A stretch of DNA of 64,000 nt from a virus (taxonomy: Duplodnaviria; Caudoviricetes), in IMG/VR virus record IMGVR_UViG_3300001594_000003, positions 32,001 through 96,000 of that record; one strand, written 5' to 3'. The notes beneath the pieces were generated by a model. The model saw only the letters and a list, made by a program, of their open reading frames with translations. It ran no database searches and had not been told where the DNA came from. The position numbers and the translations under genes were made by a program. Below, one piece after another: positions 42,666 through 60,394 of this stretch. Within the stretch, counting starts at the first letter, position 1; each line of letters begins with the position of its first letter.

Positions 42666-42671
42666 TTTCGT

Positions 42672-42687
42672 AGAACAGGGACGTTCT
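42672..42687 (+). promoter_or_regulatory. CsrA/RsmA-consensus hairpin
   Basis: AGAAC-AGGGAC-GTTCT; contains CANGGAYG; intergenic leader. Confidence 0.55.
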
Positions 42688-42713
42688 CCTATTACACAAT
42701 CGGATCCGTTTTT

Positions 42714-45110
42714 ATGTTGACCAATTTGCCGATACTTAGCCCAAAGAAACTACTCACGACCATGCCGACGTTCAACATTGACGTTGTGGCTTCGGTCGAT
42801 GAGGGAAGCATATTCACAGCAACTATACGTACCACGAAACTGTCCAACGGTACCGTATTGGCTTATCGATTCGTCGGAGACATTGACGCTGCTGATATTG
42901 TAGGTAGCCTCACAGGCTCCGTAACAGTCAGCAACAACGTAGCAACTGTGACACGCACCATAGCGCGTGACGCTAGAACTGAAGGACCTAAAGTTCTTAC
43001 GTTTGAGGTCCTAGCGAATAACTCTATTGCTGTCTTAGCTAGGCTGCATACTGTAATCAATGACACCTCGCTTGATCCAACCTACAGCATTACACCCAAC
43101 ATCACCTCGGTATCGGAGGGTGAATCTGTAACATTCACCCTGAACACCACTGACGTGTTTGATGGTTCGACACTGCACTGGACCACTTTGTCGGATTCGT
43201 TGACAGTGGATGACTTTGCAGACGCTCGGTTGTCTGGGTCACTCACCATCACAGGCAACCGAGGCACAATCGTTCGACCCATAGCGTATGATAACGCAAC
43301 AGACGACGCAGAGTTTCGCATAGAGATTCGCACTGGTTCCATAGGGGGGCCGGTCGTCCTCACTAGCGAGCCCGTTGCCGTAAATGACTACAATATGAGC
43401 ATTGGTCAGGCAGCTTACACTGAGCCCGGTACGTATGAGTTTGTAGTGCCTACTGGTGTACCTTACCTATCGGCCGTTGTTATTGGCGGTGGCGCTAGTG
43501 CCGGTGGAAGTGGTGGAGTGCGTCCCGGCACCGGAGGTGGTGCAGGCGCTTTGCGGTTCAGAAATAAAATACCCGTAATATCAGGAGAAACACTAACAGT
43601 AGAAGTCGGCGCAGGCGGCGAGCCGATAGTAGGTGAAGTTGACGGCAAGCCCGGCCTAAGAAGTGCTATTCGCAGAGCATCTACTGATCTTGTCTATGCA
43701 AATGGAGGCTCGCCGGGCAGTCGTGGGTTAGCTTCTACCCAAACTACAGTTCGAGCGTACAATAGTTGGACCTCTACCAACACTAATCACGGTTCAAGTT
43801 CCTCCGGTGGCTACAGCCTCACGATGCGTAAGGACGAGCAGTTAAGAATAGCCTGCGGCGTTTCGTCCGAGTCTGGTTTCGATTTTATGACCGTGACTGT
43901 GAATAGCAATCAAGTTTATAGGCAGTCTGGTAGCAACTCACAAGTAGTAACATGGACTGCAACCAACGACGGTCAAGTATATATTTCCTGGACATACTCT
44001 AAGGACGGCTCCATTAGTAGGGGATCAGATCGTGGCTGGATCAGCTACATAGATCATCTAAAGTATGTTTCCAGCACTAATGGTGGGATTGGCGGTTCTG
44101 GGTCTTCTTTAGGTGGTGATGTAGGTGGATACAATGGAGGCAAGGGAGGTGATTCTAACGACACGACGCCGGGTGCAGGTGGTGGTACCGGTGGTTATAC
44201 CGATGTAGGTGCACCCGGTCAAGGGAACAACAACACCAACGTATCCTCGGTTACGGGCGGCGATGGTGGTACTATTGTTGATGGTAACGGTATGGGAGGT
44301 GGCGGCGCCGATCTGTTCGGTATTCAAGCAGAACGGTCGCCTCGTTCCACATCAAGCGATACCGTAGACGGCAAAGACTTTGGTGCTGGCGGTGGCGCAC
44401 GCAAAAGCGCAGAATCCTCACTACCGAGCGGCAAGGGAGGTAAAGGTGCAGTGCGTATCATTTGGGGATTCAATCGAATCTTCCCTAGTGCAGGTATGGA
44501 AGACCAAGACCCGATAACGTACACGCCGCCTATACCTAGTGATGATTCCAATCCTTGGCTATTAGCTGGGGACGATCAGCTTGGTTGGTATGGTGAAGTT
44601 TCCGCAGCTGACTTCATCACTGGCGATGCTCTTGCGTCACTTGTAAATCTCACTGCAGGTTCAAGTATCAACTCTGCACATGGTTGGTTGAAGTTTGCGT
44701 ATAAGGGCAAAACACTTCTTACCTCAAAGCGGCCGTTGAGGTCTACCATATCGTGGAATGATCTAAACGCCAGAGCACTAATAACAGGCAACACGGTTGT
44801 TTCCATCAATGGCCTGCAGTACAAGGTACGTCTGTTCTTCGGTAACACCGGTCTTGAGTGGGATGATCTGATGTATCGTGTGTGGGAAAATGACCCAACA
44901 GGCACGTTCTGGGAACGGTATACTTCTGTTGATCTAGTGGCAACTAATCCGGGTAGTGACCCAGGTCGAGATAACTGGTGCCAAGAGTCTGCAGGTACAG
45001 GCACATACCGTACTCGCGGTAACGGCGGTATGCAGGGGTACTATGACGGTTCTGCCGCGTCCGCGGATAGCGGTCGAGGATGGAGACCTGTTCTTGAACT
45101 GGTGCAGTAA
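42714..45110 (+). CDS. mosaic tail-fibre-like protein (Calx-beta-like repeats, Gly-rich domain, phiKZ-type C-terminal domain)
   Basis: SV.EG....FT..TT repeats; GGGG motifs; GWYGEV...GWLKF...GWRPVLEL. Confidence 0.7.
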   Translation: MLTNLPILSPKKLLTTMPTFNIDVVASVDEGSIFTATIRTTKLSNGTVLAYRFVGDIDAADIVGSLTGSVTVSNNVATVTRTIARDARTEGPKVLTFEVLANNSIAVLARLHTVINDTSLDPTYSITPNITSVSEGESVTFTLNTTDVFDGSTLHWTTLSDSLTVDDFADARLSGSLTITGNRGTIVRPIAYDNATDDAEFRIEIRTGSIGGPVVLTSEPVAVNDYNMSIGQAAYTEPGTYEFVVPTGVPYLSAVVIGGGASAGGSGGVRPGTGGGAGALRFRNKIPVISGETLTVEVGAGGEPIVGEVDGKPGLRSAIRRASTDLVYANGGSPGSRGLASTQTTVRAYNSWTSTNTNHGSSSSGGYSLTMRKDEQLRIACGVSSESGFDFMTVTVNSNQVYRQSGSNSQVVTWTATNDGQVYISWTYSKDGSISRGSDRGWISYIDHLKYVSSTNGGIGGSGSSLGGDVGGYNGGKGGDSNDTTPGAGGGTGGYTDVGAPGQGNNNTNVSSVTGGDGGTIVDGNGMGGGGADLFGIQAERSPRSTSSDTVDGKDFGAGGGARKSAESSLPSGKGGKGAVRIIWGFNRIFPSAGMEDQDPITYTPPIPSDDSNPWLLAGDDQLGWYGEVSAADFITGDALASLVNLTAGSSINSAHGWLKFAYKGKTLLTSKRPLRSTISWNDLNARALITGNTVVSINGLQYKVRLFFGNTGLEWDDLMYRVWENDPTGTFWERYTSVDLVATNPGSDPGRDNWCQESAGTGTYRTRGNGGMQGYYDGSAASADSGRGWRPVLELVQ

Positions 45111-45115
45111 CGAAG

Positions 45116-45122
45116 TAATTTA
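45116..45122 (+). promoter_or_regulatory. putative late promoter TAATTTA
   Basis: Intergenic, upstream of A2. Confidence 0.6.
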
Positions 45123-45192
45123 AACACAGAGTAGTGAAGTCGCGTTTGTGATTCTCAACTCTCAATCAAGGTTCATATACGGAGAAATACCA

Positions 45193-46185
45193 ATGCCTGG
45201 TAAAATTTACAAGCGTGAGAAGTTGCAGTCGCTTACCGAACTGGCCTCTTCCCTCTTCACGGACATGAAAGCTGCTGGCCTGATGCAAGTGCTGCCGGCT
45301 ACCGGCCAGAACTTCACACCGACTGCAGGTGCTGGCAAGTTTGTGCTGGAGTCCGTTGCTGCAATCAACCCTGTTCAAGCCAAACAGCCGTGGCGTATCC
45401 TCGTAGACCTCGAAGGCGCTACTGCGTTCAACGGCCGTCTGCGCATCGCCATTGCCAACCCGCAGCAGATCACCAACGCTGGCGGCACTTCTTCCTTCCC
45501 GGGTGCAACTGACACTACTGGTGCACGCATCATGGGTCAACTGGGTTCTGCCTGGAACAAGACTACCGGCGGTGCACTGGGCGATTGCTTCGTTACTCGC
45601 AACATCACCAACCGTACTTACGACGCTGGTACCACTCTGTCGTATCTGCTGGTCGCAACCAACCGCGGCCTGAGTCTGATGGTGTGGGAAGACGCATCCG
45701 ATGCTGCTCCTGTCTACTCGTTCTTCTCGATCCAGAGCCCTGTCAACAAACAAGACGGCTCGCCGCTGACTGACCTCAACAGCCCGATCTTCGTAGTCTA
45801 CGACTGCGACAACACCGGCATGAAGAAGTTTGTGGTTTCGGAAAGCGACGTGTTCCGCCCGACTCAGAGCAAACCTGCTGACAAGGACACCACAAACAGC
45901 GCTGCGATCATCAACTCCACTGAGCAAGTCGCAATCGCTCGTGGTAACAAGTATCTGGTGACTTTCCCGAATCGCCTGAACACTGACCGTTACGCTTACA
46001 CCGAGGAACTGGATCAGTTCGCCTACACTTCGGCTGACGTAATCGGTGAAGAATCCGAGATTTCTGTCACTGTCTACGGTGAAGCCACTCCGCGTGTCTA
46101 TCGCGCAATGAAGGCAAACGGTGCCGACAACGTCGGTATGCGTCTCCTGATGTTGGTAGAAGGCGGCGGCGTACCTGCAGTCTAA
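45193..46185 (+). CDS. cassette protein A2
   Basis: Start MPGKIY with GGAG SD; paralog of A1/A3; very biased codons. Confidence 0.8.
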   Translation: MPGKIYKREKLQSLTELASSLFTDMKAAGLMQVLPATGQNFTPTAGAGKFVLESVAAINPVQAKQPWRILVDLEGATAFNGRLRIAIANPQQITNAGGTSSFPGATDTTGARIMGQLGSAWNKTTGGALGDCFVTRNITNRTYDAGTTLSYLLVATNRGLSLMVWEDASDAAPVYSFFSIQSPVNKQDGSPLTDLNSPIFVVYDCDNTGMKKFVVSESDVFRPTQSKPADKDTTNSAAIINSTEQVAIARGNKYLVTFPNRLNTDRYAYTEELDQFAYTSADVIGEESEISVTVYGEATPRVYRAMKANGADNVGMRLLMLVEGGGVPAV

Positions 46186-46223
46186 CGAGCAGGATAACGC
46201 TTTCAATCTTACGGAGATAAAAC

Positions 46224-47291
46224 ATGCCTGGTAAAATCTACACTCGCGGCAAGATTCAGTCGCTCGGTGCTCTGCTTACTGCAATGCACGAAGACTTCAA
46301 ACTAGCCGGCTTCAAATCCATTCTTCCTGCTGCCGATGCTCAGCTTACGCTGACAGCCGGCGTAGGTAAGTTCGTCCTCGAATCTGACGCAGCGTTCAAC
46401 CCTGTTCAGGCCAAGCAAGCGTATCGCATTTTCGTGGAGACCTTCACTTCCGAAGGTGGTACCTCGATGCGCGTCGCTATCGCCAGTCCCGAACAGATCA
46501 GCGATACTGGAGAAGTAGCTTCGTTCCCGTACGAAGATACATACTGGGGAAGCGGTACGAGTCAAGTTGTTGCTACATACCAAGGTGAATACACCATGGG
46601 GCAACTCGGCAAGAAGTTCAAGCCGATGGCTCAACGAGAAGCTAACGGCTCTACTTCTCCTGCCATGCCTGGACTGCAACGCGGTGATGTGTTCATCGCT
46701 CGTGACGGTGTTTACGGACAGAACTACGACACCGGCTCTACCATGAGCTACGTGCTGAGCGTTAGTGGCCACGGCGTTGTGTTCTACGTTTGGGAAGACA
46801 CCAGCGACAAGGCTCCACTGTACAGCTTCTTCGCAGTACAGAGTCCAGTGAACAAAGACACCGGCGCTGCTCTGGTCGACCTGAACAGCCCGATCTTCTG
46901 CGTGTTCGATTGTGACAACACTGGCATCAAGAAGTTTGTGGTCAACGAAGCAGACACAGCTCGTCCTACTGTTGCAGTTGCTGCTGACCAAGACACCATC
47001 AACAGTTCCGCTATCGTCAACTCGGCTGAACAAGTTGCGATCAAGCGGGGCAACAAGTACCTGGTGACTTTCCCGAATCGTATCAATACGGATCGCTACG
47101 CCTACACCGAAGAACTGGATATGATTGCATACACCAGTGCTGACGTGATCGGCGAAGAAGCCATGATCCCTGTGCGTATCTACGGCGAAACCAGCGATCG
47201 TATCTACCGTGCAATGAAGGCCAATGGTCCGAACAACACAAAGATGCGTCTGCTTGTGCTCGTTGAAGGCGGCGGCATCCCCTCCGTCTAA
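46224..47291 (+). CDS. cassette protein A3
   Basis: Paralog with central insertion. Confidence 0.8.
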   Translation: MPGKIYTRGKIQSLGALLTAMHEDFKLAGFKSILPAADAQLTLTAGVGKFVLESDAAFNPVQAKQAYRIFVETFTSEGGTSMRVAIASPEQISDTGEVASFPYEDTYWGSGTSQVVATYQGEYTMGQLGKKFKPMAQREANGSTSPAMPGLQRGDVFIARDGVYGQNYDTGSTMSYVLSVSGHGVVFYVWEDTSDKAPLYSFFAVQSPVNKDTGAALVDLNSPIFCVFDCDNTGIKKFVVNEADTARPTVAVAADQDTINSSAIVNSAEQVAIKRGNKYLVTFPNRINTDRYAYTEELDMIAYTSADVIGEEAMIPVRIYGETSDRIYRAMKANGPNNTKMRLLVLVEGGGIPSV

Positions 47292-47298
47292 GTAACAC

Positions 47299-47336
47299 AA
47301 TGGGGCTAAGATCATCGTGTCTTTAGCCCCATTTTT
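47299..47336 (+). terminator. intrinsic terminator between A3 and B2
   Basis: aatggggctaa/ttagccccatt plus T-tract; homologous to 38973 hairpin. Confidence 0.85.
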
Positions 47337-47353
47337 GGTTCATGGAGCATGCC

Positions 47354-50300
47354 ATGTTTATTCCTGTAAGCATAAACACAGGCTTGACTACGGTTAGCTG
47401 CGTCGCTACAGCTACTGGTGATCTAACTGCTGACTGCGAGGTGCTGTACAAGTCAGCATCTTATCAGCCGAACGTTGCGATACCTGTTGTGAAAGGCGAT
47501 ACCATTCAGTTGCGGACTACTGTAACTGGACCTGCTCAGATCGTAGTTGAGTTGGGAGACAGAACTTACTACTGGCACGTCGATCTACCGAAGACCCTCC
47601 GCTACGTGGAGGACTTGGCATTTCAGCGCGTTACTGGTTCTGTGTACGGCAAGCTGTACTCTTTCCCGAGCAATACGCAGAAGACGTATGTTGAAACTGG
47701 TACGTTGACCAAGAACGAGGATATCCTTGCGTCTATTGACTACCAGAAGAAAGAAATCTGGCTGTTCGGCAGTCTCGGTGCCGTCAAGAAGATCACAACA
47801 CCGGAAAAACCTGTAGCCGTTGTGTTCTTGCCTCGTTGGTCTATCGATGAAGACGTTGCCACAAAACCGTACGTGGTTACTGAATCTAAGGTATACGCAC
47901 TTGCTGACGATATGTCGTTGGATGTAGCCGGTGGTGTTGTTATTGCCACAGGCCCGCTTGTAAACAGTGCGTGTGCTGATGCTTCTGGCATTGTATTCAT
48001 TACAGACACTTATGTTGGCCGGATCATACCCGGACAAGGCGCAACGCAGCTAACGAATACAGGAGGCAGCTCCGTTCAAGTCACATACGACAATAAGATC
48101 GTGGTTGGTCGTAATGACGGATTTATATCAATCTTCACTCAATCCGGTGCGTCGTACTCGGAAGAAATCATTTTCACCGAACGAGAGCTTCCAAATGGGT
48201 CCGTAATCGGCGTCAATAGCAAATACCTGCTCGATGTTAACCACGCAGAGCATGTGTTTGCCGTTGATATGGTTAATCGTAAAGTCATTTCCATCAAGCT
48301 GGATGACAAGACGGTCAATCAACTAAACCTAGACTTTGTTCCGAGCAGCATTGTCAGTGAAAAGGATTCGGTCTACGTCAGCTTCTTCAACCACACCAAG
48401 GCATTCAAATACGGCGTGGACTTAACCGGCTTGGAAGAAGTGGCGAGCGTTAAGACGCATGGCTCCAGCTTCCTTACGGAGTTTATGGCGACTGATTTGT
48501 ATGAAGATGCTGCTGACGTTACTAAAGCCGAAGACTCCACGGCCATTCGCTTCAACCAGCACGATATTGGCGTAGACGAAACCTCACTGACCGCAACTTG
48601 GACAGTACCGTGGACTCGCCCTCAGTATATACGCTTGGTGACGCCGGGTGCTACTGCAACACTGGACGATCAACCGTTTACGGAAGGTTATGTAGTATCG
48701 CCGAGCCAACTCGTCGTATCTATGTCAAACGACGGTGAGTATTACGCAGAGTCCCAAGTCGATTTGATGGGATACCGTCCAGTATCGATTCATTTCCGCA
48801 CTGAGCCGAAGCTGTTCCCGAACAGTGTCACGCTGGACACTGTTTACGAAGCGTTTATTCGCAGGCAGTACGATGATATCTTCCAAGTGGAAGGTATGAC
48901 TGACGGCTTCTCTGTTCAGGTTGGAACTGATTCTGGAGATATGGAGTTCAGTATCAACGACGCTCCGTATGCGAAGACTGGTACGATCAAGAATGGTGAC
49001 GTGGTTGAAGTGCGTGCTGTAATCAAGAACATGATTACCAAGCGCAATCAGCACGATATCATGACCGAGTTCGGTATGCCTGTCAGTCTGTGGACAATCC
49101 TTGTCATGCAGCTTAACGGTGCATCGTTCCGTCCTGATACAACTCTGGAAAAGCACAAGTTTGACGTGGTGCGTCAGGAAGAAAGCGCTACCGAAGAACA
49201 CACGGTTGAGCCTCAGATAAGCATCGCAGCTCCTCAGATGCTATCGACTGATACCTATGCTCCGTTGGTAAGTGCCAGCTATATGTGCGAAGGCGACGTT
49301 GAGTGCAACCATTGGGACTCGAACGTTGTTATGCAGGGTTCTCTTGTGCAGTCTCTTAGCGGCACGACTCGCATACTTGAACAGAGTACCTCAAGCTCAG
49401 TGGCAGGCACGACTCGTAGTGTCGAACACGGTTACGAGGCAGTTATTGCCTATTCCGACAGCAGCTATGACTCACCGTTGCTCCGTATGGAAGCCGCCTT
49501 AAGAGAAGGTGAAAAGTCGTTCTTCTACGATGCCGATTACTCGGTTAGCGTTTCGCTTGCGGTGTCTGAATATGCTTCCTATACGGAGCGCCGTGCTGGA
49601 GTAAGTGTATCCGTTCAGGACAACGTGTTCTATCTGACTCGGGACACCTCGAAGTACACATTGGATGCAGAAACGTTCCGTTACGTCAGTATGTCGTCCA
49701 TTGCTTATCAGTACGACTACCTACGCGAACATGCGGCACACACTATCGGCATTGACGCTGAATATGTGCGGCGCTTGTCGGCTTCTTTGGAGTTTGCAGC
49801 AACTGTCGATCGGTTCTACTCGAATCCGACTGTGGACCTGAACGCTGTATATGAAAAGACCTTGCTTCCTACACAGGTCGAGCATGTATCAGATTACGAA
49901 GCTCAGGTGCGTTCTCGCCAGTTCGCTACGGAGTCACCAACACAGTTGCTTGCCAACATTACCTACGCAGATCACAGTGCAGAAGGTCGTGTTCTATACG
50001 GACCTACGTATGGTGAGTTCGGTTCTGGTGTGGATGTAAATGGCCAGCAAAGCTATGTGGACTTCACTGCCACGGGTATTACCAACAGCAGCAACGAAAC
50101 ATTTGCTTCCAACGTTGTGATGTTCTCGCAACATGAGAGCATTTTGGTTCCGATGCCTGTTCGCGAGTGGGTTGTCGATACTCATCAGGAGCTTAGCCTT
50201 GAAGCAGATCAGAGTGGTTTCTTTGACACACTGGAAGACGCTCAAGCCTATGCTGCTACTCTAAACCTAGAGCTGAACACGCCTGCCCAATTCAAGCAGT

Positions 50301-50413
50301 ACGGTGACAAGTGGATTCTAGTTTCGGCACCTGTTGCAGACAATGCAGCGTGTTTCCCAACAACAGCGCCGCCTAGTTCGCAACGCAGGTTCGGCTACGC
50401 AGGAGGTGGTTAA
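47354..50413 (+). CDS. cassette protein B2
   Basis: Start MFIPVS with GGAG SD; paralog of B1. Confidence 0.75.
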   Translation: MFIPVSINTGLTTVSCVATATGDLTADCEVLYKSASYQPNVAIPVVKGDTIQLRTTVTGPAQIVVELGDRTYYWHVDLPKTLRYVEDLAFQRVTGSVYGKLYSFPSNTQKTYVETGTLTKNEDILASIDYQKKEIWLFGSLGAVKKITTPEKPVAVVFLPRWSIDEDVATKPYVVTESKVYALADDMSLDVAGGVVIATGPLVNSACADASGIVFITDTYVGRIIPGQGATQLTNTGGSSVQVTYDNKIVVGRNDGFISIFTQSGASYSEEIIFTERELPNGSVIGVNSKYLLDVNHAEHVFAVDMVNRKVISIKLDDKTVNQLNLDFVPSSIVSEKDSVYVSFFNHTKAFKYGVDLTGLEEVASVKTHGSSFLTEFMATDLYEDAADVTKAEDSTAIRFNQHDIGVDETSLTATWTVPWTRPQYIRLVTPGATATLDDQPFTEGYVVSPSQLVVSMSNDGEYYAESQVDLMGYRPVSIHFRTEPKLFPNSVTLDTVYEAFIRRQYDDIFQVEGMTDGFSVQVGTDSGDMEFSINDAPYAKTGTIKNGDVVEVRAVIKNMITKRNQHDIMTEFGMPVSLWTILVMQLNGASFRPDTTLEKHKFDVVRQEESATEEHTVEPQISIAAPQMLSTDTYAPLVSASYMCEGDVECNHWDSNVVMQGSLVQSLSGTTRILEQSTSSSVAGTTRSVEHGYEAVIAYSDSSYDSPLLRMEAALREGEKSFFYDADYSVSVSLAVSEYASYTERRAGVSVSVQDNVFYLTRDTSKYTLDAETFRYVSMSSIAYQYDYLREHAAHTIGIDAEYVRRLSASLEFAATVDRFYSNPTVDLNAVYEKTLLPTQVEHVSDYEAQVRSRQFATESPTQLLANITYADHSAEGRVLYGPTYGEFGSGVDVNGQQSYVDFTATGITNSSNETFASNVVMFSQHESILVPMPVREWVVDTHQELSLEADQSGFFDTLEDAQAYAATLNLELNTPAQFKQYGDKWILVSAPVADNAACFPTTAPPSSQRRFGYAGGG

Positions 50414-50943
50414 TGATCACGTCACCAGTATTCCGTCACGCCAAACCGGGCGCGGCGGAGTTGTTCTCGCTCGTCGGCGGAGCTACGGTTGATTTCACGG
50501 AGCAGGTCTTCACAGACTCAATCGAGATGGAGGAAACCAACTATGCCCTGTTCGACGTGATCCGAAGTGATGGCGTTACTCTGAATCGAGAGCAGGGTTT
50601 GTTTCCTGACTATTGGTTTGAGAACGGATCGCTACGTACTAAGGAACCCGGCACGTATACACTGCGCGTCTATTCCTCGATCATGCCGTTTGAGCAATGG
50701 GTTATAAACCTCGGTAAGAAGATGGTGCCTTCCGACGGTTCGTTGTTCAAGGTCGGTGTTCCGTTTTGGCCGCAGATTCTTTCGCAGCCTGAGCACGGCA
50801 TCGCCCGTGTCTCAAATGACGGGCGCCACATCGCGTATGTATCTCGTGGCTTCATCGGACAAGTAGCTTTCAGTTATCGTCTGGTGAATGCGTTTGGGCA
50901 AGTCAGTGAGCCTGCTTGTGTAAACATCACAACTACACGATGA
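50413..50943 (+). CDS. cassette protein C2
   Basis: TAATG coupling; paralog of C1. Confidence 0.8.
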   Translation: MITSPVFRHAKPGAAELFSLVGGATVDFTEQVFTDSIEMEETNYALFDVIRSDGVTLNREQGLFPDYWFENGSLRTKEPGTYTLRVYSSIMPFEQWVINLGKKMVPSDGSLFKVGVPFWPQILSQPEHGIARVSNDGRHIAYVSRGFIGQVAFSYRLVNAFGQVSEPACVNITTTR

Positions 50944-50944
50944 A

Positions 50945-50988
50945 GAAAGGGGTCGGAGAGCATAACAGCCTTCGGCCCTTTTCCTTTT
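50945..50988 (+). terminator. intrinsic terminator
   Basis: gaaaggggtcgga...ttcggcccttttc plus T-tract. Confidence 0.75.
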
Positions 50989-51001
50989 GCACTCCGTCGA
51001 A

Positions 51002-51008
51002 TAATTTA
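51002..51008 (+). promoter_or_regulatory. putative late promoter TAATTTA
   Basis: Directly after terminator; ATG 28 nt after motif end. Confidence 0.7.
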
Positions 51009-51035
51009 AGCGTATCACTTATGTAGGATACACTC

Positions 51036-53027: not shown

Positions 53028-54166
53028 CAATACATTTATTCGAAGGTTTCTTCGGTCCTGATTATCGGCCGCAAGCACCTACTTTGTTTCCAACCGCCAA
53101 CCCAACAGGTCAACTGTTTAACGTAACAGAGGACGGGTGGACGTTTGCGTACACGACCTACTATTCAAACGCGACCGGATATAGTGGTGCGTATATAGGA
53201 ACTCAACAAGGTGTTCCTAAAGGGAATAAACTCGTATTTGGGTTGAGATTTAAGAATCTCATCAACCAACTACACCATATAACCATGATGTTCCTTGAAG
53301 TGCCTCAGGTTTCAATTTCTTACAGTTCATCAAGTAGTATAGGCCTGTCTGCACGGTCTCCGTTGCCTGCATTTTGGATGAAAAGTACCACACCGAGCGG
53401 AGCGAACGCAGGATTAACCTCAGCTGGGCTACGGGCACCTAACACCAACGTAGGCACAACTGGGGCAAATCCGACCTCGATTGTGTCTTGGAACCTTGAA
53501 GGGTACGACACTAGAACAAATGAATATTGCGTAGAAGTTGAGTATGACTTCCAAAACAATATGATCAATATATGGATCGATGGTTTTAAAATTCAAGAGT
53601 ATGCGTATGTGTTTACGGAAGCTCAGAAGGCTATTCAGGTTCTATACCCTGTAGTTGAGAGCCACACACGCCATCCTCAATCCGGCAACTCCGCTGGTAA
53701 CTCATCCTACACTTTGAAGCATGTACACTTCGCCGACGAGGTTCTGGGTAACGTTCAAGCGAAACGTCTTGCTCCAACCGCAGACTTCAACGTTGATTCT
53801 GTGTACAACACTCCTGCATTTTCCAAATTCAATACGTACAACGCTGGCGTAACGACAACCAAAACAGGGAAGATGGTGTTGGATGTAGCTGACGTTACAG
53901 ATGAGACAATACTTGCGTTCAATTTGATTGGCACATTCTCCAAGTCGCACGTTTCGGCCTACGAAACAATTTCAACTGAAAAGCTACTCATTTCTGACGG
54001 CACGACAGAAAACGCAGGTCCAGCCAACGCTGTTGAAAATAGCTCGCGGGATTTCAGGATGTTGGAGAAGAATCCTATAACTGGATCGAACTGGACGCAA
54101 AGTCAGATCAATCAACTAAAAATAGGCGTTGACTTGACTATAACAGACAAGTTCCCAAGAAGCTAG
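53024..54166 (+). CDS. partner of LamG fibre protein
   Basis: IHLFEGF start, KNP.TG..WT...IN.L end; paralog of 57005. Confidence 0.7.
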   Translation: MTIHLFEGFFGPDYRPQAPTLFPTANPTGQLFNVTEDGWTFAYTTYYSNATGYSGAYIGTQQGVPKGNKLVFGLRFKNLINQLHHITMMFLEVPQVSISYSSSSSIGLSARSPLPAFWMKSTTPSGANAGLTSAGLRAPNTNVGTTGANPTSIVSWNLEGYDTRTNEYCVEVEYDFQNNMINIWIDGFKIQEYAYVFTEAQKAIQVLYPVVESHTRHPQSGNSAGNSSYTLKHVHFADEVLGNVQAKRLAPTADFNVDSVYNTPAFSKFNTYNAGVTTTKTGKMVLDVADVTDETILAFNLIGTFSKSHVSAYETISTEKLLISDGTTENAGPANAVENSSRDFRMLEKNPITGSNWTQSQINQLKIGVDLTITDKFPRS

Positions 54167-54176
54167 GTAACTGATA

Positions 54177-57008
54177 ATGTTAGGGCTAATCAGAAAGTTT
54201 GCACAGTGGCCTTGGCCATTGTTGCGTCGCACAGAAGAGGAAGTATCCGATACCTGGGTACAATTCCGATTTCAAGACAACGAAGCTATCAATGAAGTAA
54301 CCGAAGTGCCTGCTTTAATGTACGGCACTGCGACTGTCACGGAAGGGAAGCTGGTAACAAATCCACCGTCTACATCAAACTACATGGCGGCACCGAACGT
54401 AATCTTCGAGGCAAACGAAGATTTCAGCATTAGCTTGAACGTGAACATGCCCTTCACGGAGACACGACCTTATAATTGCATTGTCGGTGTGTATGATTCC
54501 TTCTCCTCCGGCAAATATGCGTGGGTCTTAGGTCGCCGAGGTAATGAAAGCCCATCTAAAAAATTGGCATTCAATTTTAACGATAACGGAAACTTGCGTG
54601 TACTGAACGGCATATCCGATATTAAACCTAATCTTGATTATCACGTTGAGATATCGCGCGTTTCAAACGTAGTCTATATGTTTGTTAATGGCAACCTAGA
54701 AAGCTCAATGGTTATATCAGGTGGGAACCCGAAAATAGCACTTCCGAGATTACGTACAGACGTTGTACATTCTGAGGGCCAAACTACCACCAGCACGCAT
54801 GTTGGCGGTGGCTATAAGTGGAGCATTCAGATAAAGAAAGGCCAAGGCGGACATACTGAGAATTTTACTCCTAGTGAGCTTGATCCGTACGTGCGTGCTA
54901 CATACTCTAAGTCACTTGCGGATAAAGTAGCAGCGCAGTACGGATTCCGTCGCAACTCTCTCGCAGATGAAGCTGGTAATGGTACAGGCGTTCTGTATGG
55001 TACAGCATCTGTATCTGAAGGCCGCATTAAGCAGACGGCAGTAACGACCTCGTACTTCCAGTTGCCTATCCGTAAATTTGGACAAGGTGACTTCACTATA
55101 GAGCTTATGGCAAAAGTATCTTCCGTTAACTCAAGCTATGGTGCAGCTATACTTGGTCATTGGAAGGCAGGAGCTGCTGCGAGTGATGAGAATAGATGGT
55201 GCATCCATATCGGTGCGCAAGGTCAAATCTCTTGGAATCAGGCTCGATCCGCCAACGCAGACGATAGGCACTACTTCATTTCACCTAGTGGTAAGTTTAA
55301 GTTCAACACAGACCAACACATAGTGGTTGAGAAGATTGGACAAACAGTTTCTATATACGTTGATGGAGAACTGGCTGCTAGTCAGGTCGGCTTCGATTTT
55401 CCTATCCGAGGAGAAGCGCCTCATTATGCGCGTAGCTTGAGTAGTCAGAATACCTATACAATGGCGGGCGAAGTATGGAACATTCGCATCGTCGATCAAG
55501 CTGTTTACGGCGGAACTGTCGTTCAGAAACCAACGTTCCCGCAGTTCCCGAAAGAAACTGTGTGGCCTTGGTTACAAATGACCAAAGACGGTAGATATGG
55601 TTACGATGAAGTCTCTGGTCATGACTGGTACACTACCAATAGTGCTACTGTGCAAAACGGCACAATCACTACAATAGCGTCCGCGTCAAGTAAAGCAGAA
55701 ACGTCATCGGTAACGTTCGACGAGAACGAAGACTTCACGATTGAATCGAAGTGGAAAGCATCTACCATACACTCAACGAATGGTGCCGCCATTCTATGTG
55801 TATGGAATACTGCAGGGCAAGGCGACAACTCATGGTGTTTGGTGCTGAATCCAAATCAAACGCTCAGTTTCGGTTTTTCCTCGGATGGTACAACGTACAC
55901 TGTCTTGGATGGGACGATAGTCGCTGCGTTGAACCAAGAGCACCATGTAGCTGTAGTGCGAAAGAATGGCGTCATTAGGATGTTTGTTGACGGCCAACCA
56001 GAAGCCGCTACGATTGTTTCTAATCTTGCATCGTTCAAATCGAGTCGTCCGCTATCTACGACGTGGAACGCTTCTACGTACATGGCAGCGGATCGTTGGG
56101 ATATTCGTATTATCAAGGGAGAAGCAAAATATACGGTCGCGTTCACGCCAGTCACGCTTACAGCTTTCCGTCGCCCATTGTATGAATCTGCTATTGAATC
56201 TGCCATAGCATCACAGTATGTTTTCCGTGAAAACGTAAACCATAACGAGATAACAGGCGAAGTAGCTAGCCTTTCAGGTACTGCGGCTGTAATGCGTGGT
56301 CGTATCAAGACTACAAATGACAACACGTCTCAGTATAGCCTGCCTACGAAATACTTCGGAGCGGGTGATTTCACCATTGAGTTTATGTTTAAGCTGCTTG
56401 CATCGCGCAGCGCAACGATGCAAATTCTCGGTCAAGCCTACTCCGGTAATCAGGTACACCAAGACAACAGTTGGAACATTTACTACAAAGACAATTCGCT
56501 TACAGTTGATATCTGGCCGGGTCTGACCTTAACTCGTCACGTTATTAGTTGCGGACCGTTGCCGCTTAACGTAGACTCGCACATAGTTGTAGAACGTGTT
56601 GAAGGTATAGTCACGGTATACGTAAACGGTAAAAGTGTCGGCACACTCAATCTGACAACGCCGCTGGTTGAGCCGGCTACAAACACGATGACGTCCAACA
56701 ACAAAATATCTGGCGCCAACAACCTATACGGCGAGCGTGAGATATGGAACATTCGGACGGCGTCTAGGGCACTCTATCGCGGAAATGTCAAAACAAAATC
56801 TACGTTTCCGCGTCCGGCAAATGGCTTCTCGGTACAAGCCCAGACTGTCAGCGTTCAATCGCTGGAAAGTAGCAGCTTCAATACGGAGCTAACGGACCAC
56901 ACCGTACAAACAGTCAGCGTACAATCCCTTGAGTCAGTACCAGTTAATACTGAGCTGACCGACCATTCGATTAACACCGTAGTAATCCAAGCATTGGTGA
57001 AAATATGA
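54177..57008 (+). CDS. LamG/concanavalin-A-like protein, four domains
   Basis: Four DF(S/T)I units; N-terminus MLGLIRKFAQWP identical to 51036. Confidence 0.8.
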   Translation: MLGLIRKFAQWPWPLLRRTEEEVSDTWVQFRFQDNEAINEVTEVPALMYGTATVTEGKLVTNPPSTSNYMAAPNVIFEANEDFSISLNVNMPFTETRPYNCIVGVYDSFSSGKYAWVLGRRGNESPSKKLAFNFNDNGNLRVLNGISDIKPNLDYHVEISRVSNVVYMFVNGNLESSMVISGGNPKIALPRLRTDVVHSEGQTTTSTHVGGGYKWSIQIKKGQGGHTENFTPSELDPYVRATYSKSLADKVAAQYGFRRNSLADEAGNGTGVLYGTASVSEGRIKQTAVTTSYFQLPIRKFGQGDFTIELMAKVSSVNSSYGAAILGHWKAGAAASDENRWCIHIGAQGQISWNQARSANADDRHYFISPSGKFKFNTDQHIVVEKIGQTVSIYVDGELAASQVGFDFPIRGEAPHYARSLSSQNTYTMAGEVWNIRIVDQAVYGGTVVQKPTFPQFPKETVWPWLQMTKDGRYGYDEVSGHDWYTTNSATVQNGTITTIASASSKAETSSVTFDENEDFTIESKWKASTIHSTNGAAILCVWNTAGQGDNSWCLVLNPNQTLSFGFSSDGTTYTVLDGTIVAALNQEHHVAVVRKNGVIRMFVDGQPEAATIVSNLASFKSSRPLSTTWNASTYMAADRWDIRIIKGEAKYTVAFTPVTLTAFRRPLYESAIESAIASQYVFRENVNHNEITGEVASLSGTAAVMRGRIKTTNDNTSQYSLPTKYFGAGDFTIEFMFKLLASRSATMQILGQAYSGNQVHQDNSWNIYYKDNSLTVDIWPGLTLTRHVISCGPLPLNVDSHIVVERVEGIVTVYVNGKSVGTLNLTTPLVEPATNTMTSNNKISGANNLYGEREIWNIRTASRALYRGNVKTKSTFPRPANGFSVQAQTVSVQSLESSSFNTELTDHTVQTVSVQSLESVPVNTELTDHSINTVVIQALVKI
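56841..56966 (+). repeat. 66-nt-period tandem repeat (QTVSVQSLES...NTELTDH)
   Basis: Two visible copies; same 66-nt period as TGISAQ repeats at 52926/52992. Confidence 0.85.
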
Positions 57009-58177
57009 TCCATTTACTAGATGGTTTCAACTGGCCGGTTAACGCAACTACAGCGAATGCCACTCTGGATAATCATCAAAATCAACCCACTTCGTTTTTT
57101 CAGTTCCCACCAAATCCGTACGTGCACCCAGAAAACGGCAAAGGGCTTTTTGGTGCACGAGAAAACACAGGCACCGCACTTATACACGGCCTAAGAATAG
57201 TTGCACGACCTGCGCTAACGTTCACAAACGGGAAACTCGTTGTTGGAGGTTCCTTCTATGCCAACAATATAAACACGGACGGTAACAGGAATTTTTTTGG
57301 CTTGCTTCTCTGCTATACGAACGACGGTTATATAGGTACCACTCAGGTACGCAGCAGTGCTGGTTCTTCAGATATGGCACCGCCAGTGACGCGATTGCCT
57401 TCCTTGCTACTTAAGGGAAGTATGTTGATGTTGCGCAAGTACGCATCAAGCTCTTCCAGTACGAGCGCATCTACCTACGTAGCAAGCCGTGATCTTACAG
57501 GGGTCACCTCTATGGGTAAGCATTGGTTTGAGGTTGTGTACGATTTCAATGCCAACACCGTAGAAGTCTTCATAGATAACGTATCCGTGTTGTTGCATCC
57601 GTACACGTTTACTGAGGAGGAGAAAACTGCTTCGTATCGTCTTCAAGTACACATGCAGGTCTGCTCATCGCTTCCTGAACTGTACGTGACTGCGGTGTAC
57701 GCAGCAGATGAACGATTTGGTCCGTGCAAGGTAGTAGCCAAATATGCAAACGCTGACGTGTCCGTTCCACCTGCATTCGGAGAAGGGCCGCATTTTCAAA
57801 AACTCAACGGCAGTTTCATATCTACCGACACCAACAAGTTGGTCACTAAGCAGGATGCCTCAGCTGAGTTTGGATTGACTCCTAGTGAAATAACGGGTGA
57901 CGTGAAGGGTGTAGTCGTGTTGGGTCGCTTGTCTTCAACTAACCGATCTGCGTATGAAACTGGGGCCGACGTACAATACGGCCTCAAATTGCCTCAAGGA
58001 ACATGGGCATCCAATAAAATACCGGTGCCGACACCGGTTGAAGCAACAGAGCGAATTGAAGCCGTAATGCTGGACAAGAATCCCCTAACTGGCACTGCGT
58101 TCACGAAAGACGAAATCAACTCGCTAGGTCTGACCCTAACGTTCGACGTGACCAACAAGTTTACCGTAGCTGAATAA
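57005..58177 (+). CDS. partner of LamG fibre protein
   Basis: IHLLDGF start, KNP.TG..FT...IN.L end. Confidence 0.7.
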   Translation: MIHLLDGFNWPVNATTANATLDNHQNQPTSFFQFPPNPYVHPENGKGLFGARENTGTALIHGLRIVARPALTFTNGKLVVGGSFYANNINTDGNRNFFGLLLCYTNDGYIGTTQVRSSAGSSDMAPPVTRLPSLLLKGSMLMLRKYASSSSSTSASTYVASRDLTGVTSMGKHWFEVVYDFNANTVEVFIDNVSVLLHPYTFTEEEKTASYRLQVHMQVCSSLPELYVTAVYAADERFGPCKVVAKYANADVSVPPAFGEGPHFQKLNGSFISTDTNKLVTKQDASAEFGLTPSEITGDVKGVVVLGRLSSTNRSAYETGADVQYGLKLPQGTWASNKIPVPTPVEATERIEAVMLDKNPLTGTAFTKDEINSLGLTLTFDVTNKFTVAE

Positions 58178-58182
58178 CCGAG

Positions 58183-58204
58183 TAATTTAATCACAAGGAT
58201 GTGA
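58183..58204 (+). promoter_or_regulatory. TAATTTA promoter followed by CsrA/RsmA-consensus hairpin TCACAAGGATGTGA
   Basis: ACAAGGAUGU matches the core of CsrA consensus RUACARGGAUGU; doubles as SD of uORF. Confidence 0.65.
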
Positions 58205-58209
58205 ATAAA

Positions 58210-58257
58210 ATGCCAACACTAAAATACGTTCAAGGAGCTCCACTTAATCATACGTGA
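58210..58257 (+). CDS. 15-aa leader uORF (MPTLKYVQGAPLNHT)
   Basis: AAGGA SD; stop 9 nt before GH5 ATG, inside a hairpin covering the GH5 SD. Confidence 0.45.
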   Translation: MPTLKYVQGAPLNHT

Positions 58258-58266
58258 GGCTCCAAA

Positions 58267-60315
58267 ATGAAACCAGAAGAACTCCTTGCTGCTATGCAGC
58301 CACTAGCGGAAGCCGTAGCAAAGGCGACCGCGGAATACACGAAAGAAGTTGCTTCTTATCGTGAGGAACTAGCACAGACCAAGGAAGAACTTCAACGAGT
58401 ACGGACGCAACTTGAAGAACTAGCAGGTGCAACACCAAAGCCGACACCCGAGCAACCAAAGCCAGAGCCTACTCCTGAACCGGAGCCAACACCTAAGCCT
58501 GATGTACCTGCGACCGGTGCCATCAAGATCAATGATTTCGATGGCGGTGATTGGCTGAACGGTGTCTGGATCAAGGATGATACCCGCCGGGTATCCATAC
58601 CGCAAACTGACCTGTTCACAGTTGGTGATGAAGTAACACTAGCTGATGGTGAACCCCGTCGCGTCAAAGTTGTTGAAGACGTTGGCGATAACATCAGTCT
58701 GGAACTCACTGGCGGCAAGATCGACCCTAACGTTGCAGGTGCACCCAACAACGTAACTAAGGTAGCAGACGGTGAGCCGGATGATCTGCCTGAGCCGGGA
58801 CCTGAGCAGCCAGCTCCAATACCAGAAGTACCAAAGCCTGAGCCGAAGCCGGACGTTGAAGGGTTTACCTCCAGCATCAACAACTTCACGGATGACAAGT
58901 ATTGGGATCGCGGTATCTGGCGCGGCGATAAGGCTGGTATCAGTATCACTAACTCGGCAGACAATCGTAAGCACTTCGTAGAGGGTGCTCCGGTTAAACT
59001 TGCCACTGGCGAGATTCGTCGAGTAACGTGGGCTCAAGAGGTTGGTGACAACATCAGCCTTTTCTTGGAAGGTACGACCTTGGATGCTTCTAAGGTCGGC
59101 TCACCCAACAAGATCGTATTGGCAACTGACGAAGCACCTCAGCCAGACCCAAAGCCGACAGAGCCGGAACCTACACCTACTCCAGCACCTACGCCGATCC
59201 CACCTGTTTCTGGTGTTGACGCTCAACTGCCTGCGTTCGGTCTAAACTTGGGTGGTCTGGGTAATAACCCTTGGCTTGCAGCTATCAATGGGCCGGATGG
59301 GGTTCGAGGCGATACACACTACTCGATCACCAAAGAGCCGCACATTGCGTGCTATGCGAAACACTTGAACGGTAAGCCGTGGATTGCGCGTCTGCCTATC
59401 GCTGCTGAGTACCTGATCACCAAGGATGGAGACAAGCTCAACCAGCGCTATGTGAACGACATTCTGGGTGTGATGAACATCGTCCACAAGTACGGCGGTA
59501 AAGTGCTGTTGGATATGCACAACTACTACCGCTTCTGGAAGAAAGTACCCAGCCCTGTTGCGGGTCGTGATATGAAGAACCACAACGACCACCTTGCAAA
59601 GGGTTCGGCTGTGTGGACTGTCATCAACGAGCCGGATTGTCCTGTCACCAACAAAGGATTCGCGCAACTGTGGGTAGACATTCTGATGGGCCCAATAGGT
59701 AAGCATCCTGCGATGTTTATGGCTGGGCTTGTGAATGAACCACACAACCGCGGCACCGACAAGGTTGATATCAACTCGAAGTGGCCTGTATGTGCTCAAC
59801 TGTGCGTCAACGAAATCCGTAAGGTCAACAAGACTATCTGGATTACAGTTGCGGGCAACTTCTACAGCAGCGCCAAGATGTGGACCAGCGTCAGCAAGGA
59901 CCTGCACAAGATCACTGATCCGCAAGACAAGCTGATCTTTGAAGCTCACCAGTACATGGACAAGCAGGGTAATGGTGGCGGGGCGTGGAACTCCCACACC
60001 GATCCGGTTGCTGCCGATCAAGGTACCAAGGACTGGGCAGGGTATGCCGCCTGGGCTATAGAGAAGAACGTGCGTGGTATGTGCGGTGAAGTAGGTGGTC
60101 CCGCTACTGCAGGTCAGTATTTGACTGCTGTTCGCCGCTTGTGTGATCTTATGGCATCACACCGTATGCCAGTAGTGTTTTGGATGGGCGGTACTGGCCA
60201 GAACGACAGCTACGCTAACGGTATGAACACCAAGGCAGGCGTACTCAAACCAAATGCTGCGCCTCTGATGGAGCGCATCGGACGCACGTTCCCATCGTAC
60301 GGGCCGAAGAAGTAA
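58267..60315 (+). CDS. GH5 glycoside hydrolase (endoglucanase-like) with N-terminal coiled coil, Pro-rich linkers and two repeated putative binding modules
   Basis: RLP, LLDMHNY, NEPH (acid/base), FEAHQY, GEVG (nucleophile). Confidence 0.88.
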   Translation: MKPEELLAAMQPLAEAVAKATAEYTKEVASYREELAQTKEELQRVRTQLEELAGATPKPTPEQPKPEPTPEPEPTPKPDVPATGAIKINDFDGGDWLNGVWIKDDTRRVSIPQTDLFTVGDEVTLADGEPRRVKVVEDVGDNISLELTGGKIDPNVAGAPNNVTKVADGEPDDLPEPGPEQPAPIPEVPKPEPKPDVEGFTSSINNFTDDKYWDRGIWRGDKAGISITNSADNRKHFVEGAPVKLATGEIRRVTWAQEVGDNISLFLEGTTLDASKVGSPNKIVLATDEAPQPDPKPTEPEPTPTPAPTPIPPVSGVDAQLPAFGLNLGGLGNNPWLAAINGPDGVRGDTHYSITKEPHIACYAKHLNGKPWIARLPIAAEYLITKDGDKLNQRYVNDILGVMNIVHKYGGKVLLDMHNYYRFWKKVPSPVAGRDMKNHNDHLAKGSAVWTVINEPDCPVTNKGFAQLWVDILMGPIGKHPAMFMAGLVNEPHNRGTDKVDINSKWPVCAQLCVNEIRKVNKTIWITVAGNFYSSAKMWTSVSKDLHKITDPQDKLIFEAHQYMDKQGNGGGAWNSHTDPVAADQGTKDWAGYAAWAIEKNVRGMCGEVGGPATAGQYLTAVRRLCDLMASHRMPVVFWMGGTGQNDSYANGMNTKAGVLKPNAAPLMERIGRTFPSYGPKK

Positions 60316-60326
60316 CGGATTCAATC

Positions 60327-60338
60327 GCCAAGGACGGC
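60327..60338 (+). promoter_or_regulatory. CsrA/RsmA-consensus hairpin
   Basis: GCC-AAGGAC-GGC, with ACGGAT at 60315-60320. Confidence 0.45.
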
Positions 60339-60360
60339 ACCCTATTCCAATGTGCTTCTG

Positions 60361-60367: not shown

Positions 60368-60394
60368 TACACAAGCTAAATGAGGAGCTAGTAA

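Follow-up and report, generated by a model that had tools for sequence, protein, structure and literature searches.

Intergenic hairpins near the fibre and GH5 genes

We analysed a 64,000-nt stretch of the IMG/VR virus record IMGVR_UViG_3300001594_000003 (positions 32,001 to 96,000; hereafter the window, numbered from its first letter). Its + strand carries a gene for a 798-aa fibre-like protein (ATG 42714) and a 682-aa GH5 glycoside hydrolase gene (58267..60315; Pfam PF00150, E 3.8e-25, residues 375-640). Intergenic DNA accounts for only 1,444 nt (2.3%) of the window, in line with the small fraction given in a preliminary description, and the three intergenic hairpins that the description reported, starting at 42672 (site 1), 58191 (site 2), and 60327 (site 3), were all found. 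Each lies on the + (transcribed) strand, has a hexaloop closed by a C-G pair, and matches CANGGAYG with its GGA in the loop. This motif had been likened to a binding site of CsrA/RsmA-type proteins, and it is indeed the published high-affinity RsmA/RsmF site, in which the GGA of CANGGAYG lies in a stem-loop's loop (bioRxiv 10.1101/315341).

At sites 1, 2, and 3, respectively, the hairpins start 6, 13, and 11 nt after a stop codon, and the next annotated start codon is 26, 62, and 56 nt beyond their end; they are better described as post-stop hairpins than as leader elements. Placement in a leader, as first proposed, holds for site 1, which precedes the fibre ATG; site 2 adjoins a promoter motif well upstream of the GH5 start, and site 3 falls after GH5 and before the next promoter. 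The isolated hairpins are weak (-3.3, -3.8, and -4.3 kcal/mol), with short stems of 3-5 bp and no U-tract, and the three copies have just an 8-nt core in common. When folded in context, sites 2 and 3 belong to the minimum-energy structure, but site 1 is missing from that of its 71-nt context and forms only in isolation (-3.3 kcal/mol). A scan for Rho-independent terminators (G/C-rich stem of at least 5 bp plus a U-tract) listed none of the three sites, a sigma70 promoter scan returned nothing at them, and a comparison with Rfam gave no match across 42000-64000 at E up to 1.

GGA is also part of SD sequences, and we therefore scored as SD any GGA that lies 4-12 nt before a conserved start codon. 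The loop GGAs of sites 1 and 3 have no such start codon. That of site 2 lies 10 nt before ATG 58210, but this ATG is missing in 3 of 4 relatives. A fourth ANGGAN hairpin on the + strand, ATC-AAGGAA-GAT (61080..61091), does have SD spacing: it is simply the SD of ATG 61093, 4-5 nt further on, a start codon in the frame of the ORF at 61132-61467. Overlap with the ribosome-binding site of the regulated gene, a trait of most CsrA operators, was not seen: GH5 and the gene that starts at 60395 have SD sites of their own, and site 1 is the only window site with a second GGA at the downstream SD.

The site 1 junction

The site 1 hairpin, AGAAC-AGGGAC-GTTCT (42672..42687; stem 42672-76/42683-87, loop AGGGAC), follows the stop codon (42663-42665) of a 176-aa gene and has no promoter motif. 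A 17-nt block, TAGAACAGGGACGTTCT, is identical at 17/17 positions in the relative L066, where the following 26 nt have diverged and both coding flanks are ~77% identical. The second GGA (CGGAUCC; 42702..42704, + strand) serves the fibre gene as a weak SD, 20 nt from the loop GGA and 9 nt before the ATG. A GGA (UAGGACU) occupies the same place in L066, in a spacer that has otherwise diverged, and the conserved N-terminus MLTNLPILSPK fixes the fibre start codon. We rejected a fusion of the two products by read-through of the stop codon. The 48-nt spacer of the window is open and in frame, but that of L066, at 47 nt, contains a stop, and only 1 of 3 PaBG spacers is in frame.

The late-promoter-like motif and leader of the GH5 gene

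The site 2 hairpin, TCAC-AAGGAT-GTGA (58191..58204; stem 58191-94/58201-04, loop AAGGAT), lies after the stop of a 390-aa gene and overlaps a late-promoter-like 16-mer, GAGTAATTTAATCACA (58180..58195, + strand), whose core GTAATTTA (58182-58189) is separated from the hairpin by 1 base. TAATTT(A) is the most enriched k-mer of late-block intergenic DNA (P 4.6e-12), and 13/13 copies of TAATTTA are on the + strand, with a Y-R step at the 5th-6th base past the motif. TAATTTA also occurs upstream of late genes, 2 of them orthologous, in G001, a 260-kb IMG/VR relative, and CTGTAAATATAGGACA is labelled a putative middle/late promoter in the Lu11 record. The 5' arm of the hairpin is inside the promoter 16-mer, and the predicted transcription start, A58195, is the first loop base. 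A start downstream of the site had been named as evidence against CsrA-type control; at site 2 this is so as a prediction only, and the 5' arm is probably not transcribed from the site's own promoter.

In relatives L062-L065, which are too close to be informative, the stem of site 2 does not vary, and loop base 6 is either T or A. A paralogous promoter at 45115 has CAC-AGAGTA-GTG in the same place, with the GGA missing. We rejected a DNA operator or class II activator site as the function of the hairpins: the loop is common to the sites but the arms are not, and the spacing to the promoter differs in G001.

Translation of GH5 is more likely to be controlled mainly by a second structure. The 111-nt GH5 leader has a folding z of -3.2, and in it GGAGCUCCAC (58234-43) pairs with GUGAGGCUCC (58254-63) in a stem (58234..58263, + strand) that would sequester the SD GAGG (58256-59). 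Both arms are kept in 5 genomes, whose loops vary in sequence and in length, and none of the 5 shows a compensatory change. Leader-peptide coupling is only a possibility. A 15-codon upstream ORF (58210..58257, + strand) ends in a stop that overlaps the GH5 SD, but its ATG is not conserved, being removed by a 4-nt indel in L062, L064, and L065, which have another ATG (AAAATGCG) that is missing from the window.

GH5 homologues are found in Stutzerimonas phages and in bacteria. A metagenome scan with GH5 returned only bacterial genes, 26-33% identical and followed by ordinary terminators, and IMG/VR searches with the genes that flank GH5 yielded no relatives.

The junction downstream of GH5

Site 3 is part of a double GGA element (60315..60338, + strand), in which an ACGGAU that overlaps the GH5 stop codon precedes the hairpin GCC-AAGGAC-GGC (60327..60338; stem 60327-29/60336-38, loop AAGGAC). 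The pattern GCC-AAGGA(C/T/A)-GGC, together with the upstream GGAUU, is shared by L062-L065 and the distant G001, and the 12-mer is retained in a phage with just 30-60% protein identity. Its counterpart in Lu11 is UAA-ACGGA-N5-GGCC-AAGGAC-GGCC. PaBG has ACAGCAC-AAGGAC-GTGCTGT at the syntenic place, so that site 3, the G001 copy, and this third PaBG hairpin share relative position and loop on different stems.

A second late-promoter-like 16-mer, CTGTAATTTATACACA (60358..60373, + strand), begins 19 nt past site 3 and precedes the gene at 60395-61057; the distance from site 3 to GTAATTTA is 21 nt. The same order of hairpin, GTAATTTA, SD, and ATG is repeated after PaBG gp215. Both site 3 and the third PaBG hairpin are upstream of the next promoter, which implies that they are absent from mRNAs of the downstream gene that are initiated there.

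A hairpin family in PaBG-like phages

Conservation in relatives, which the preliminary description had put forward as a check, was borne out by the L066 block at site 1, by the retained 12-mer at site 3, and by the presence of the same element in PaBG, Lu11, and G001. Sites 1-3 belong to a conserved intercistronic hairpin family of PaBG-like giant Pseudomonas phages. Members consist of a 3-7-bp stem of free sequence, a C-G closing pair, and an A-R-G-G-A-N hexaloop, and are located 4-13 nt past a stop codon. In distant relatives C-A-R-G-G-A-N-G recurs on varying stems, 4-10 nt past a stop. Besides the copy at the site 3 position (after gp215), PaBG has GGCAC-AAGGAC-GTGCC and GGCAC-AGGGAC-GTGCC after gp218 and gp216, respectively. 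These 3 hairpins start 4-7 nt past the stops, surround adhesin genes, and have a perfect ACA(A/G)GGACGU. Lu11 (n=2) has GGGCC-AAGGAA-GGCCC in addition to its site 3 counterpart, and G001 (n=2) has ATGAC-AGGGAA-GTCAT and GCC-AAGGAA-GGC. The PaBG and Lu11 stems are G/C-rich and 4-7 bp long.

Loop base 2 is a purine in 10/10 aligned members, and base 6 is never G (C 6, A 3, U 1), a composition that partly fits the Y of CANGGAYG. Relatives of the window sites vary at loop base 6 only (C, T, or A), and the Y is thus not strictly kept. We did not use a covariation count on the family alignment as evidence, because it is circular for the inner pairs, members having been chosen for their stem. The hairpins had been thought to mark accessory virion genes, and the family is often found where exchangeable fibre, adhesin, or glycanase cassettes begin or end, sometimes right beside a TAATTTA late promoter. 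It is not confined to virion genes, however, since the genes upstream of the Lu11 hairpins encode a DNA helicase and a small hypothetical protein.

A test for intergenic enrichment, also suggested at the outset, gave a divided answer. CANGGAYG is not enriched across the window (13 matches on both strands versus 16.8 expected), and 3 of its 10 + strand matches are intergenic. Hairpin-borne ANGGAN is above background: of the 45 sense intergenic ANGGAN hexamers that the 149-kb record contains, 4 form the loop of a Watson-Crick stem of at least 3 bp versus ~0.7 expected from a background rate of 1.58%, a count that includes the SD hairpin at 61080-61091 and whose P of ~0.006 is nominal and post hoc. 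Much stronger evidence comes from three related genomes, PaBG, Lu11, and G001, which are independent of the original finding: of their 181 post-stop hexaloop hairpins with stems of at least 4 bp, 6 have an ARGGAN loop, versus ~0.27 expected. Whole-genome intergenic counts showed no enrichment in G001 and were only marginal in PaBG. IMG/VR scans with the patterns GGATT-N3-6-GCCAAGGANGGC and the site 1 16-mer gave numbers of matches as by chance, among which G001 was the sole relevant one.

Candidate readers of the hairpin loop

Because constraint is limited to the loop and its closing pair, we infer that the element works at the RNA level and that its reader is a factor specific for the loop. 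The best single reading, to which we give a probability of about 0.35, is a putative docking site for a host CsrA-family protein (RsmA, RsmN, or RsmE in Pseudomonas). Such a protein is the most likely reader because the CANGGAYG loop is a defined high-affinity ligand and no CsrA gene was found in the four phage genomes examined (the window record, G001, PaBG, and Lu11). The hosts of PaBG (P. aeruginosa PAO1) and Lu11 (P. putida) are Pseudomonas, and P. aeruginosa PAO1 has RsmA and RsmN. More generally, Pseudomonas possess RsmA-type proteins (PMC8545117). A bound host protein would reduce translation of the next cistron on read-through transcripts, or uncouple it, or might instead protect the flanking RNA. 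Several observations argue against a CsrA-family reader. The sites are off ribosome-binding sites, unlike most CsrA operators; the 5' arm of site 2 is probably untranscribed from its own promoter, and site 3 and the third PaBG hairpin lie upstream of one; and the window stems are short, with site 1 outside the fold of its context.

A possible but unlikely alternative is that the hairpins are cassette punctuation alone, similar to the PeSL composites of T4-type phages (PMC2839356) and independent of CsrA. Stem-loops would then end transcription or translation units by attenuating read-through or protecting 3' ends and, with an adjacent promoter, would provide conserved joints for the exchange of fibre, adhesin, and glycanase genes. 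Site 2, site 3, and the third PaBG hairpin are tied to the GTAATTTA motif, and the hairpins coincide with module boundaries. When the window was compared with 4 DNA runs, with hairpin base changes read from the relatives' contigs, homology to relatives in runs X5 and X7 started at 58168-58170, and contigs in 3 runs broke at 60393-60422. The fibre gene after site 1 is missing from relatives of at least 80% likeness and has no close homologue, and GH5 is relocated to another genomic context in G001 with its 3' hairpin retained. Terminators fill equivalent slots in L067, L068, L069, L073, and L074, and those of L067 and L068 in the site 1 position are canonical; their presence suits a purely structural 3'-end role and argues against a CsrA reading. 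However, a structural or recombinational role leaves the conserved loop and closing pair on varying stems unexplained, and the ~8 nt common to the three window copies are too little for homologous exchange. The weak stems without U-tracts were not scored as terminators, and PeSL stem-loops are long and G/C-rich and lie within ~100 bp of conserved sequence.

The invariable purine at loop base 2 is as compatible with a CsrA-family site as with pairing to the 3' end of 16S rRNA, and the SD-like loop weakens the CsrA reading to that extent. The AAGGA loop is perfectly complementary to the anti-SD UUCCU, AGGGA pairs with one G-U, and AAGGA-type sequences are the usual SD of this phage. The constant place right after stops points to terminating ribosomes, and the loop might hold a 30S subunit freed at the stop codon, serving as a standby site or decoy that promotes or insulates re-initiation, or as a STAB-SD-like shield against RNases. 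We consider this rather improbable: loop base 6 is never G, although a G would lengthen the pairing, 30S subunits bind weakly to a 5-nt SD closed into a hexaloop, and an SD 5-10 nt ahead of the start codon is already present in most downstream genes. It is very unlikely that a phage-encoded or other RNA-binding protein or nuclease reads the loop as a group-specific translational repressor or processing signal. Conservation of the family across PaBG-like phages would suit such a reader, and ~70% of the group's genes are without known function (PMC7412058), but there is no candidate. A RegB-type nuclease had no family match in the window record or G001, and this search and that for CsrA lead us to reject phage-encoded CsrA or RegB-type nuclease in the genomes searched. 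Least probable of all is coincidence, by which SD-rich intergenic composition and promoter-proximal sequence, chiefly at site 2, would generate the pattern. The ATCACA that follows TAATTTA at G001 104526 without a hairpin, the closeness of the site 2 relatives, and the nominal within-genome P are consistent with chance; the family-level enrichment in three independent genomes, the deep conservation of site 3, and the local conservation of site 1 argue against it.

If a host global regulator reads the hairpins, a lytic phage would couple expression of host-recognition genes to the planktonic or biofilm state of its host. Such control is documented for a colicin plasmid but, among the papers found, not for phage structural genes. 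The first proposal, that virion composition follows the state of the host, found no support. A broader proposal, which the sequence pattern makes conceivable and which we regard as quite unlikely, is that PaBG-like jumbo phages plug polycistronic mRNAs into the host Csr/Rsm network via a portable post-stop GGA-loop hairpin. Genes for fibres, adhesins, and glycanases would then track the Gac/Rsm state, or abundant late mRNAs would titrate RsmA as RsmY and RsmZ do. The question is directly testable, since the group has cultured members with tractable hosts (PaBG with P. aeruginosa PAO1 and Lu11 with P. putida). Even without a bound regulator, the hairpins show where modules of the tail-fibre region meet and can aid annotation and studies of host-range evolution.

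Comparison with known systems

The hairpins bound by RsmA, RsmF, RsmE, and CsrA have the same motif in a C-G-closed loop, which the PaBG copies reproduce perfectly, and the named relatives infect Pseudomonas. They differ from the phage copies, putative ligands that are off ribosome-binding sites and just past stop codons. PeSL (promoter-early stem-loop) cassettes are intergenic composites of promoter and stem-loop that flank variable genes. Sites 2 and 3 likewise combine a stem-loop with a phage promoter, next to variable genes and module breakpoints. PeSL promoters, however, are early and sigma70-type, and their stems terminate transcription, whereas the motif here is a late, -10-only-like TAATTTA beside short stems in which the loop alone is conserved; neither a terminating stem nor ~100 bp of similarity was seen.

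The nearest worked-out architecture is the cei-cel junction of ColE7, where CsrA binds the loop of a stem-loop just past the upstream gene as well as the downstream ribosome site, and so lowers translation of the next cistron (PMC2896534). ColE7 is a plasmid with 1 site, whereas lytic jumbo phages carry a family of sites, with a second GGA at the downstream SD in some members only. In both cases an extrachromosomal element has an intercistronic stem-loop right after the upstream gene, and in ColE7 it is the single-stranded loop of this stem-loop, along with the ribosome site downstream, that host CsrA uses to repress the next cistron.

Hairpins with a GGA loop downstream of stop codons

The window covers positions 32001-96000 of a linear virus record (148,991 nt; completeness estimate, 56%). 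Among named phages, the jumbo Pseudomonas phage PaBG comes closest to it, with ≈50% protein identity in one of two duplicated tail-sheath genes. All window genes lie on the + strand, and intergenic DNA makes up 2.3% of the window, the small fraction that had been stated. The hairpin region encodes a Gly-rich virion or fibre-like protein of 798 aa, two tail-sheath paralogues, Laminin_G/ConA-like fibre proteins, and a GH5 cellulase-domain protein of 682 aa (gene 58267-60315). The latter appears as two protein calls (474 + 228 aa; P0022 and P0023) on a 149,082-nt JGI contig, through a split in the gene or a frameshift introduced by sequencing.

The three hairpins of the preliminary description are present exactly where it placed them: AGAAC-AGGGAC-GTTCT at 42672-42687 (site 1), TCAC-AAGGAT-GTGA at 58191-58204 (site 2), and GCC-AAGGAC-GGC at 60327-60338 (site 3). 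All match CANGGAYG, as it had stated, a consensus published for RsmA/RsmF in which a stem-loop carries GGA in its loop (bioRxiv 10.1101/315341). CANGGAYG showed no overall enrichment in the window (13 matches compared to 16.8 expected). The whole record has 45 ANGGAN hexamers that are intergenic and in sense orientation, of which 4 sit on a stem of at least 3 bp compared to ≈0.7 expected (nominal P ≈ 0.006); one of these four (61080) is an ordinary Shine-Dalgarno (SD) site. Sites 1-3 are thermodynamically weak hairpins, and site 1 is absent from the minimum-energy fold of its context.

Upstream of site 1, the 176-aa protein (gene 42135-42665) belongs to a family found across many PaBG-like contigs, and a paralogue 60% identical to it lies on the same 245-kb contig (P0057). 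Its TGA is in frame with the fibre-gene ATG (42663-42716) across a 48-nt spacer lacking a stop. This open frame is probably due to chance, because the corresponding spacer in the relative L066 is 47 nt long and contains a stop.

Conservation in relatives and in other phages

Relatives for the site comparison were found through protein matches. Four genomes keep the site 2 stem unchanged, with T or A at loop position 6; this conservation is uninformative, since these genomes are ≈90% identical. The conservation that had been suggested as a check was found at the other two sites. Site 3 is kept as GCC-AAGGA(C/T/A)-GGC in the same four genomes and in the distant 260-kb relative G001. Most proteins of G001 share 30-60% identity with those of the record, its GH5 gene lies in a different genomic context, and its spacer is unalignable outside the hairpin. 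The chance of such sharing is ≈4e-4 for the pre-specified 12-mer and ≈0.015 for any 12-mer shared by the two spacers. Site 1 (TAGAACAGGGACGTTCT) is identical at 17 of 17 positions in L066, followed by 26 diverged nt; at the local DNA identity of 77%, 17 consecutive matches have a chance of ≈0.012. Outside the window, five small genes (113329-115059 of the record; 130758-132459 of G001) share 83-98% protein identity, which in phages otherwise 30-60% identical points to recent horizontal exchange.

A scan of PaBG, whose host is P. aeruginosa PAO1, revealed three hairpins within the syntenic fibre and adhesin block, all beginning 4-7 nt past a stop codon: GGCAC-AAGGAC-GTGCC after gp218, GGCAC-AGGGAC-GTGCC between adhesin genes gp216 and gp215, and ACAGCAC-AAGGAC-GTGCTGT after gp215. 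The last is followed 8 nt further on by GTAATTTA, then an SD sequence and gp214, an order also seen at site 3, and downstream of both runs the same gene series, through endolysin in PaBG, to a Nudix hydrolase in both. Lu11, another Pseudomonas phage, contains GGGCC-AAGGAA-GGCCC after a DNA helicase gene and GGCC-AAGGAC-GGCC after small gene gp035, preceded by ACGGA as at site 3; in G001, another copy follows a 907-codon ORF.

In PaBG, Lu11, and G001, three genomes outside the original observation, 181 post-stop hexaloop hairpins have stems of at least 4 bp, and 6 of them carry ARGGAN loops compared to ≈0.27 expected from same-zone hexamer frequencies; for stems of at least 5 bp, it is 5 of 68. 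Ten aligned members share the C-G closing pair and A-GGA without exception. Only purines occur at loop position 2, and G does not occur at position 6, whereas stem sequences vary freely. The covariation count is not independent evidence, because members were picked for having a stem; the three syntenic copies (site 3, that of G001, and the third PaBG hairpin) are. We conclude that the post-stop GGA-loop hairpin is real, conserved, over-represented, and of a type that Rfam does not list. Outside the window, at 14495-14516 of the record and ≈60880 of G001, orthologous large genes are followed by another conserved hairpin after the stop codon (loop GGCAAC, stem GGGGA/TCCCC).

A putative late promoter and the GH5 leader

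An unbiased k-mer test identified TAATTT(A), often (G/C)TAATTTA, as the most enriched word in late-block intergenic DNA (P = 4.6e-12). All 13 TAATTTA copies are on the + strand, among them 13538, 24612, 31469, 45116, 51002, 58183, and 60361, and, inside genes, 3991, 32363, and 34526. Nine copies closely precede a gene, with 32-34 nt to the start codon in six cases, and terminators directly precede several copies. The word recurs ahead of late genes in G001, including two orthologues of window genes. The sixth base after it is A in 8 of the 9 copies close to a gene start; of 18 filtered sites from two genomes, 16 have a purine at this base, and a pyrimidine precedes it in 12. This pattern is the signature of a putative transcription start, from which starts were predicted. 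A putative middle/late promoter annotated in the Lu11 record, CTGTAAATATAGGACA, closely resembles CTGTAATTTATACACA in the window (60358-60373). Phages of the PaBG group have a sigma70-family factor of their own (PMC7412058), and G001 has a match to one. TAATTTA is likely a late promoter for such a phage factor. The putative promoter at ≈45115, before the first sheath gene, is a paralogue of the one at site 2 and agrees with it at 18 of 23 aligned bases; where site 2 has its hairpin, it carries CAC-AGAGTA-GTG (45123-45137), whose loop contains no GGA. For the ORF listed from ATG 24618 (24618-24645), the true start is more likely an ATG ≈27 nt downstream, with AGGAGA 8 nt and TAATTTA 33 nt before it. 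Three near-identical sigma70-type promoters (TTGACG, 17-nt spacer, TATACT or TATAAT) lie outside the window on the - strand, where the early block has long intergenic stretches (≈117.2, 121.2, and 123.2 kb of the record).

Between site 2 and the GH5 start, a stem at 58234-58263 buries the GH5 SD by pairing GGAGCUCCAC with GUGAGGCUCC; the 111-nt leader has a fold z of -3.2. Both arms are kept in five genomes, with loops of varying sequence and of 10-23 nt, and no compensatory change was seen across them. Translation of a 15-codon upstream ORF whose end lies on the SD would disrupt the pairing. Of four relatives, three have lost the ATG of this ORF; each of the five genomes has some short upstream ORF across the 5' arm, not the same one.

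Candidate readers of the loop

A conserved loop on freely varying stems suggests that the element works as RNA and that its reader recognises the loop. A host CsrA-family protein would be the best candidate, at a tentative probability of roughly 0.35, because the loop is its defined ligand, no CsrA gene was found in any of four phages (the record, G001, PaBG, and Lu11), and ColE7 provides a precedent. Recognition by another reader seems quite improbable. That the loops dock 30S subunits via the anti-SD is unlikely.

The hairpins might also be punctuation or recombination joints acting without CsrA, a possible but doubtful explanation given the invariant loop. On related-phage contigs from other metagenomes, alignment starts at 58168-58170 and breaks at 60393-60422, and these phages lack the fibre gene after site 1, for which no close homologue was found. 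GH5 has relocated between the contexts of the window and G001 together with its 3' hairpin, and the relatives L067 and L068 and more distant GH5 cassettes carry ordinary terminators in the same slots. Coincidence, chiefly at site 2, is very unlikely for a family so over-represented.

Recognition by CsrA/RsmA is a plausible candidate mechanism, and one open to direct test with PaBG in PAO1 and with Lu11 in P. putida. The broader proposal of an Rsm-gated glycanase and extra fibre, giving host-state-dependent virion composition, gained no direct support and is weakened by promoter geometry at sites 2 and 3. The preliminary description had held that a transcription start downstream of a site would speak against it; at site 2, the predicted start falls within the site, at the first loop base (A58195), leaving the 5' arm in the promoter 16-mer. 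At site 3, the next GTAATTTA starts 21 nt downstream. The broader proposal is also weakened by the Lu11 members, which lie beside non-virion genes.

In ColE7, CsrA binds both the cel SD and the loop of a hairpin immediately following cei (PMC2896534), a worked precedent for CsrA acting on a stem-loop just downstream of the upstream gene. The PeSL cassettes of T4-type phages (PMC2839356) combine a promoter with a stem-loop, similar to the hairpins at module boundaries here; unlike these hairpins, PeSL stems are long terminators within ≈100 bp of similarity.
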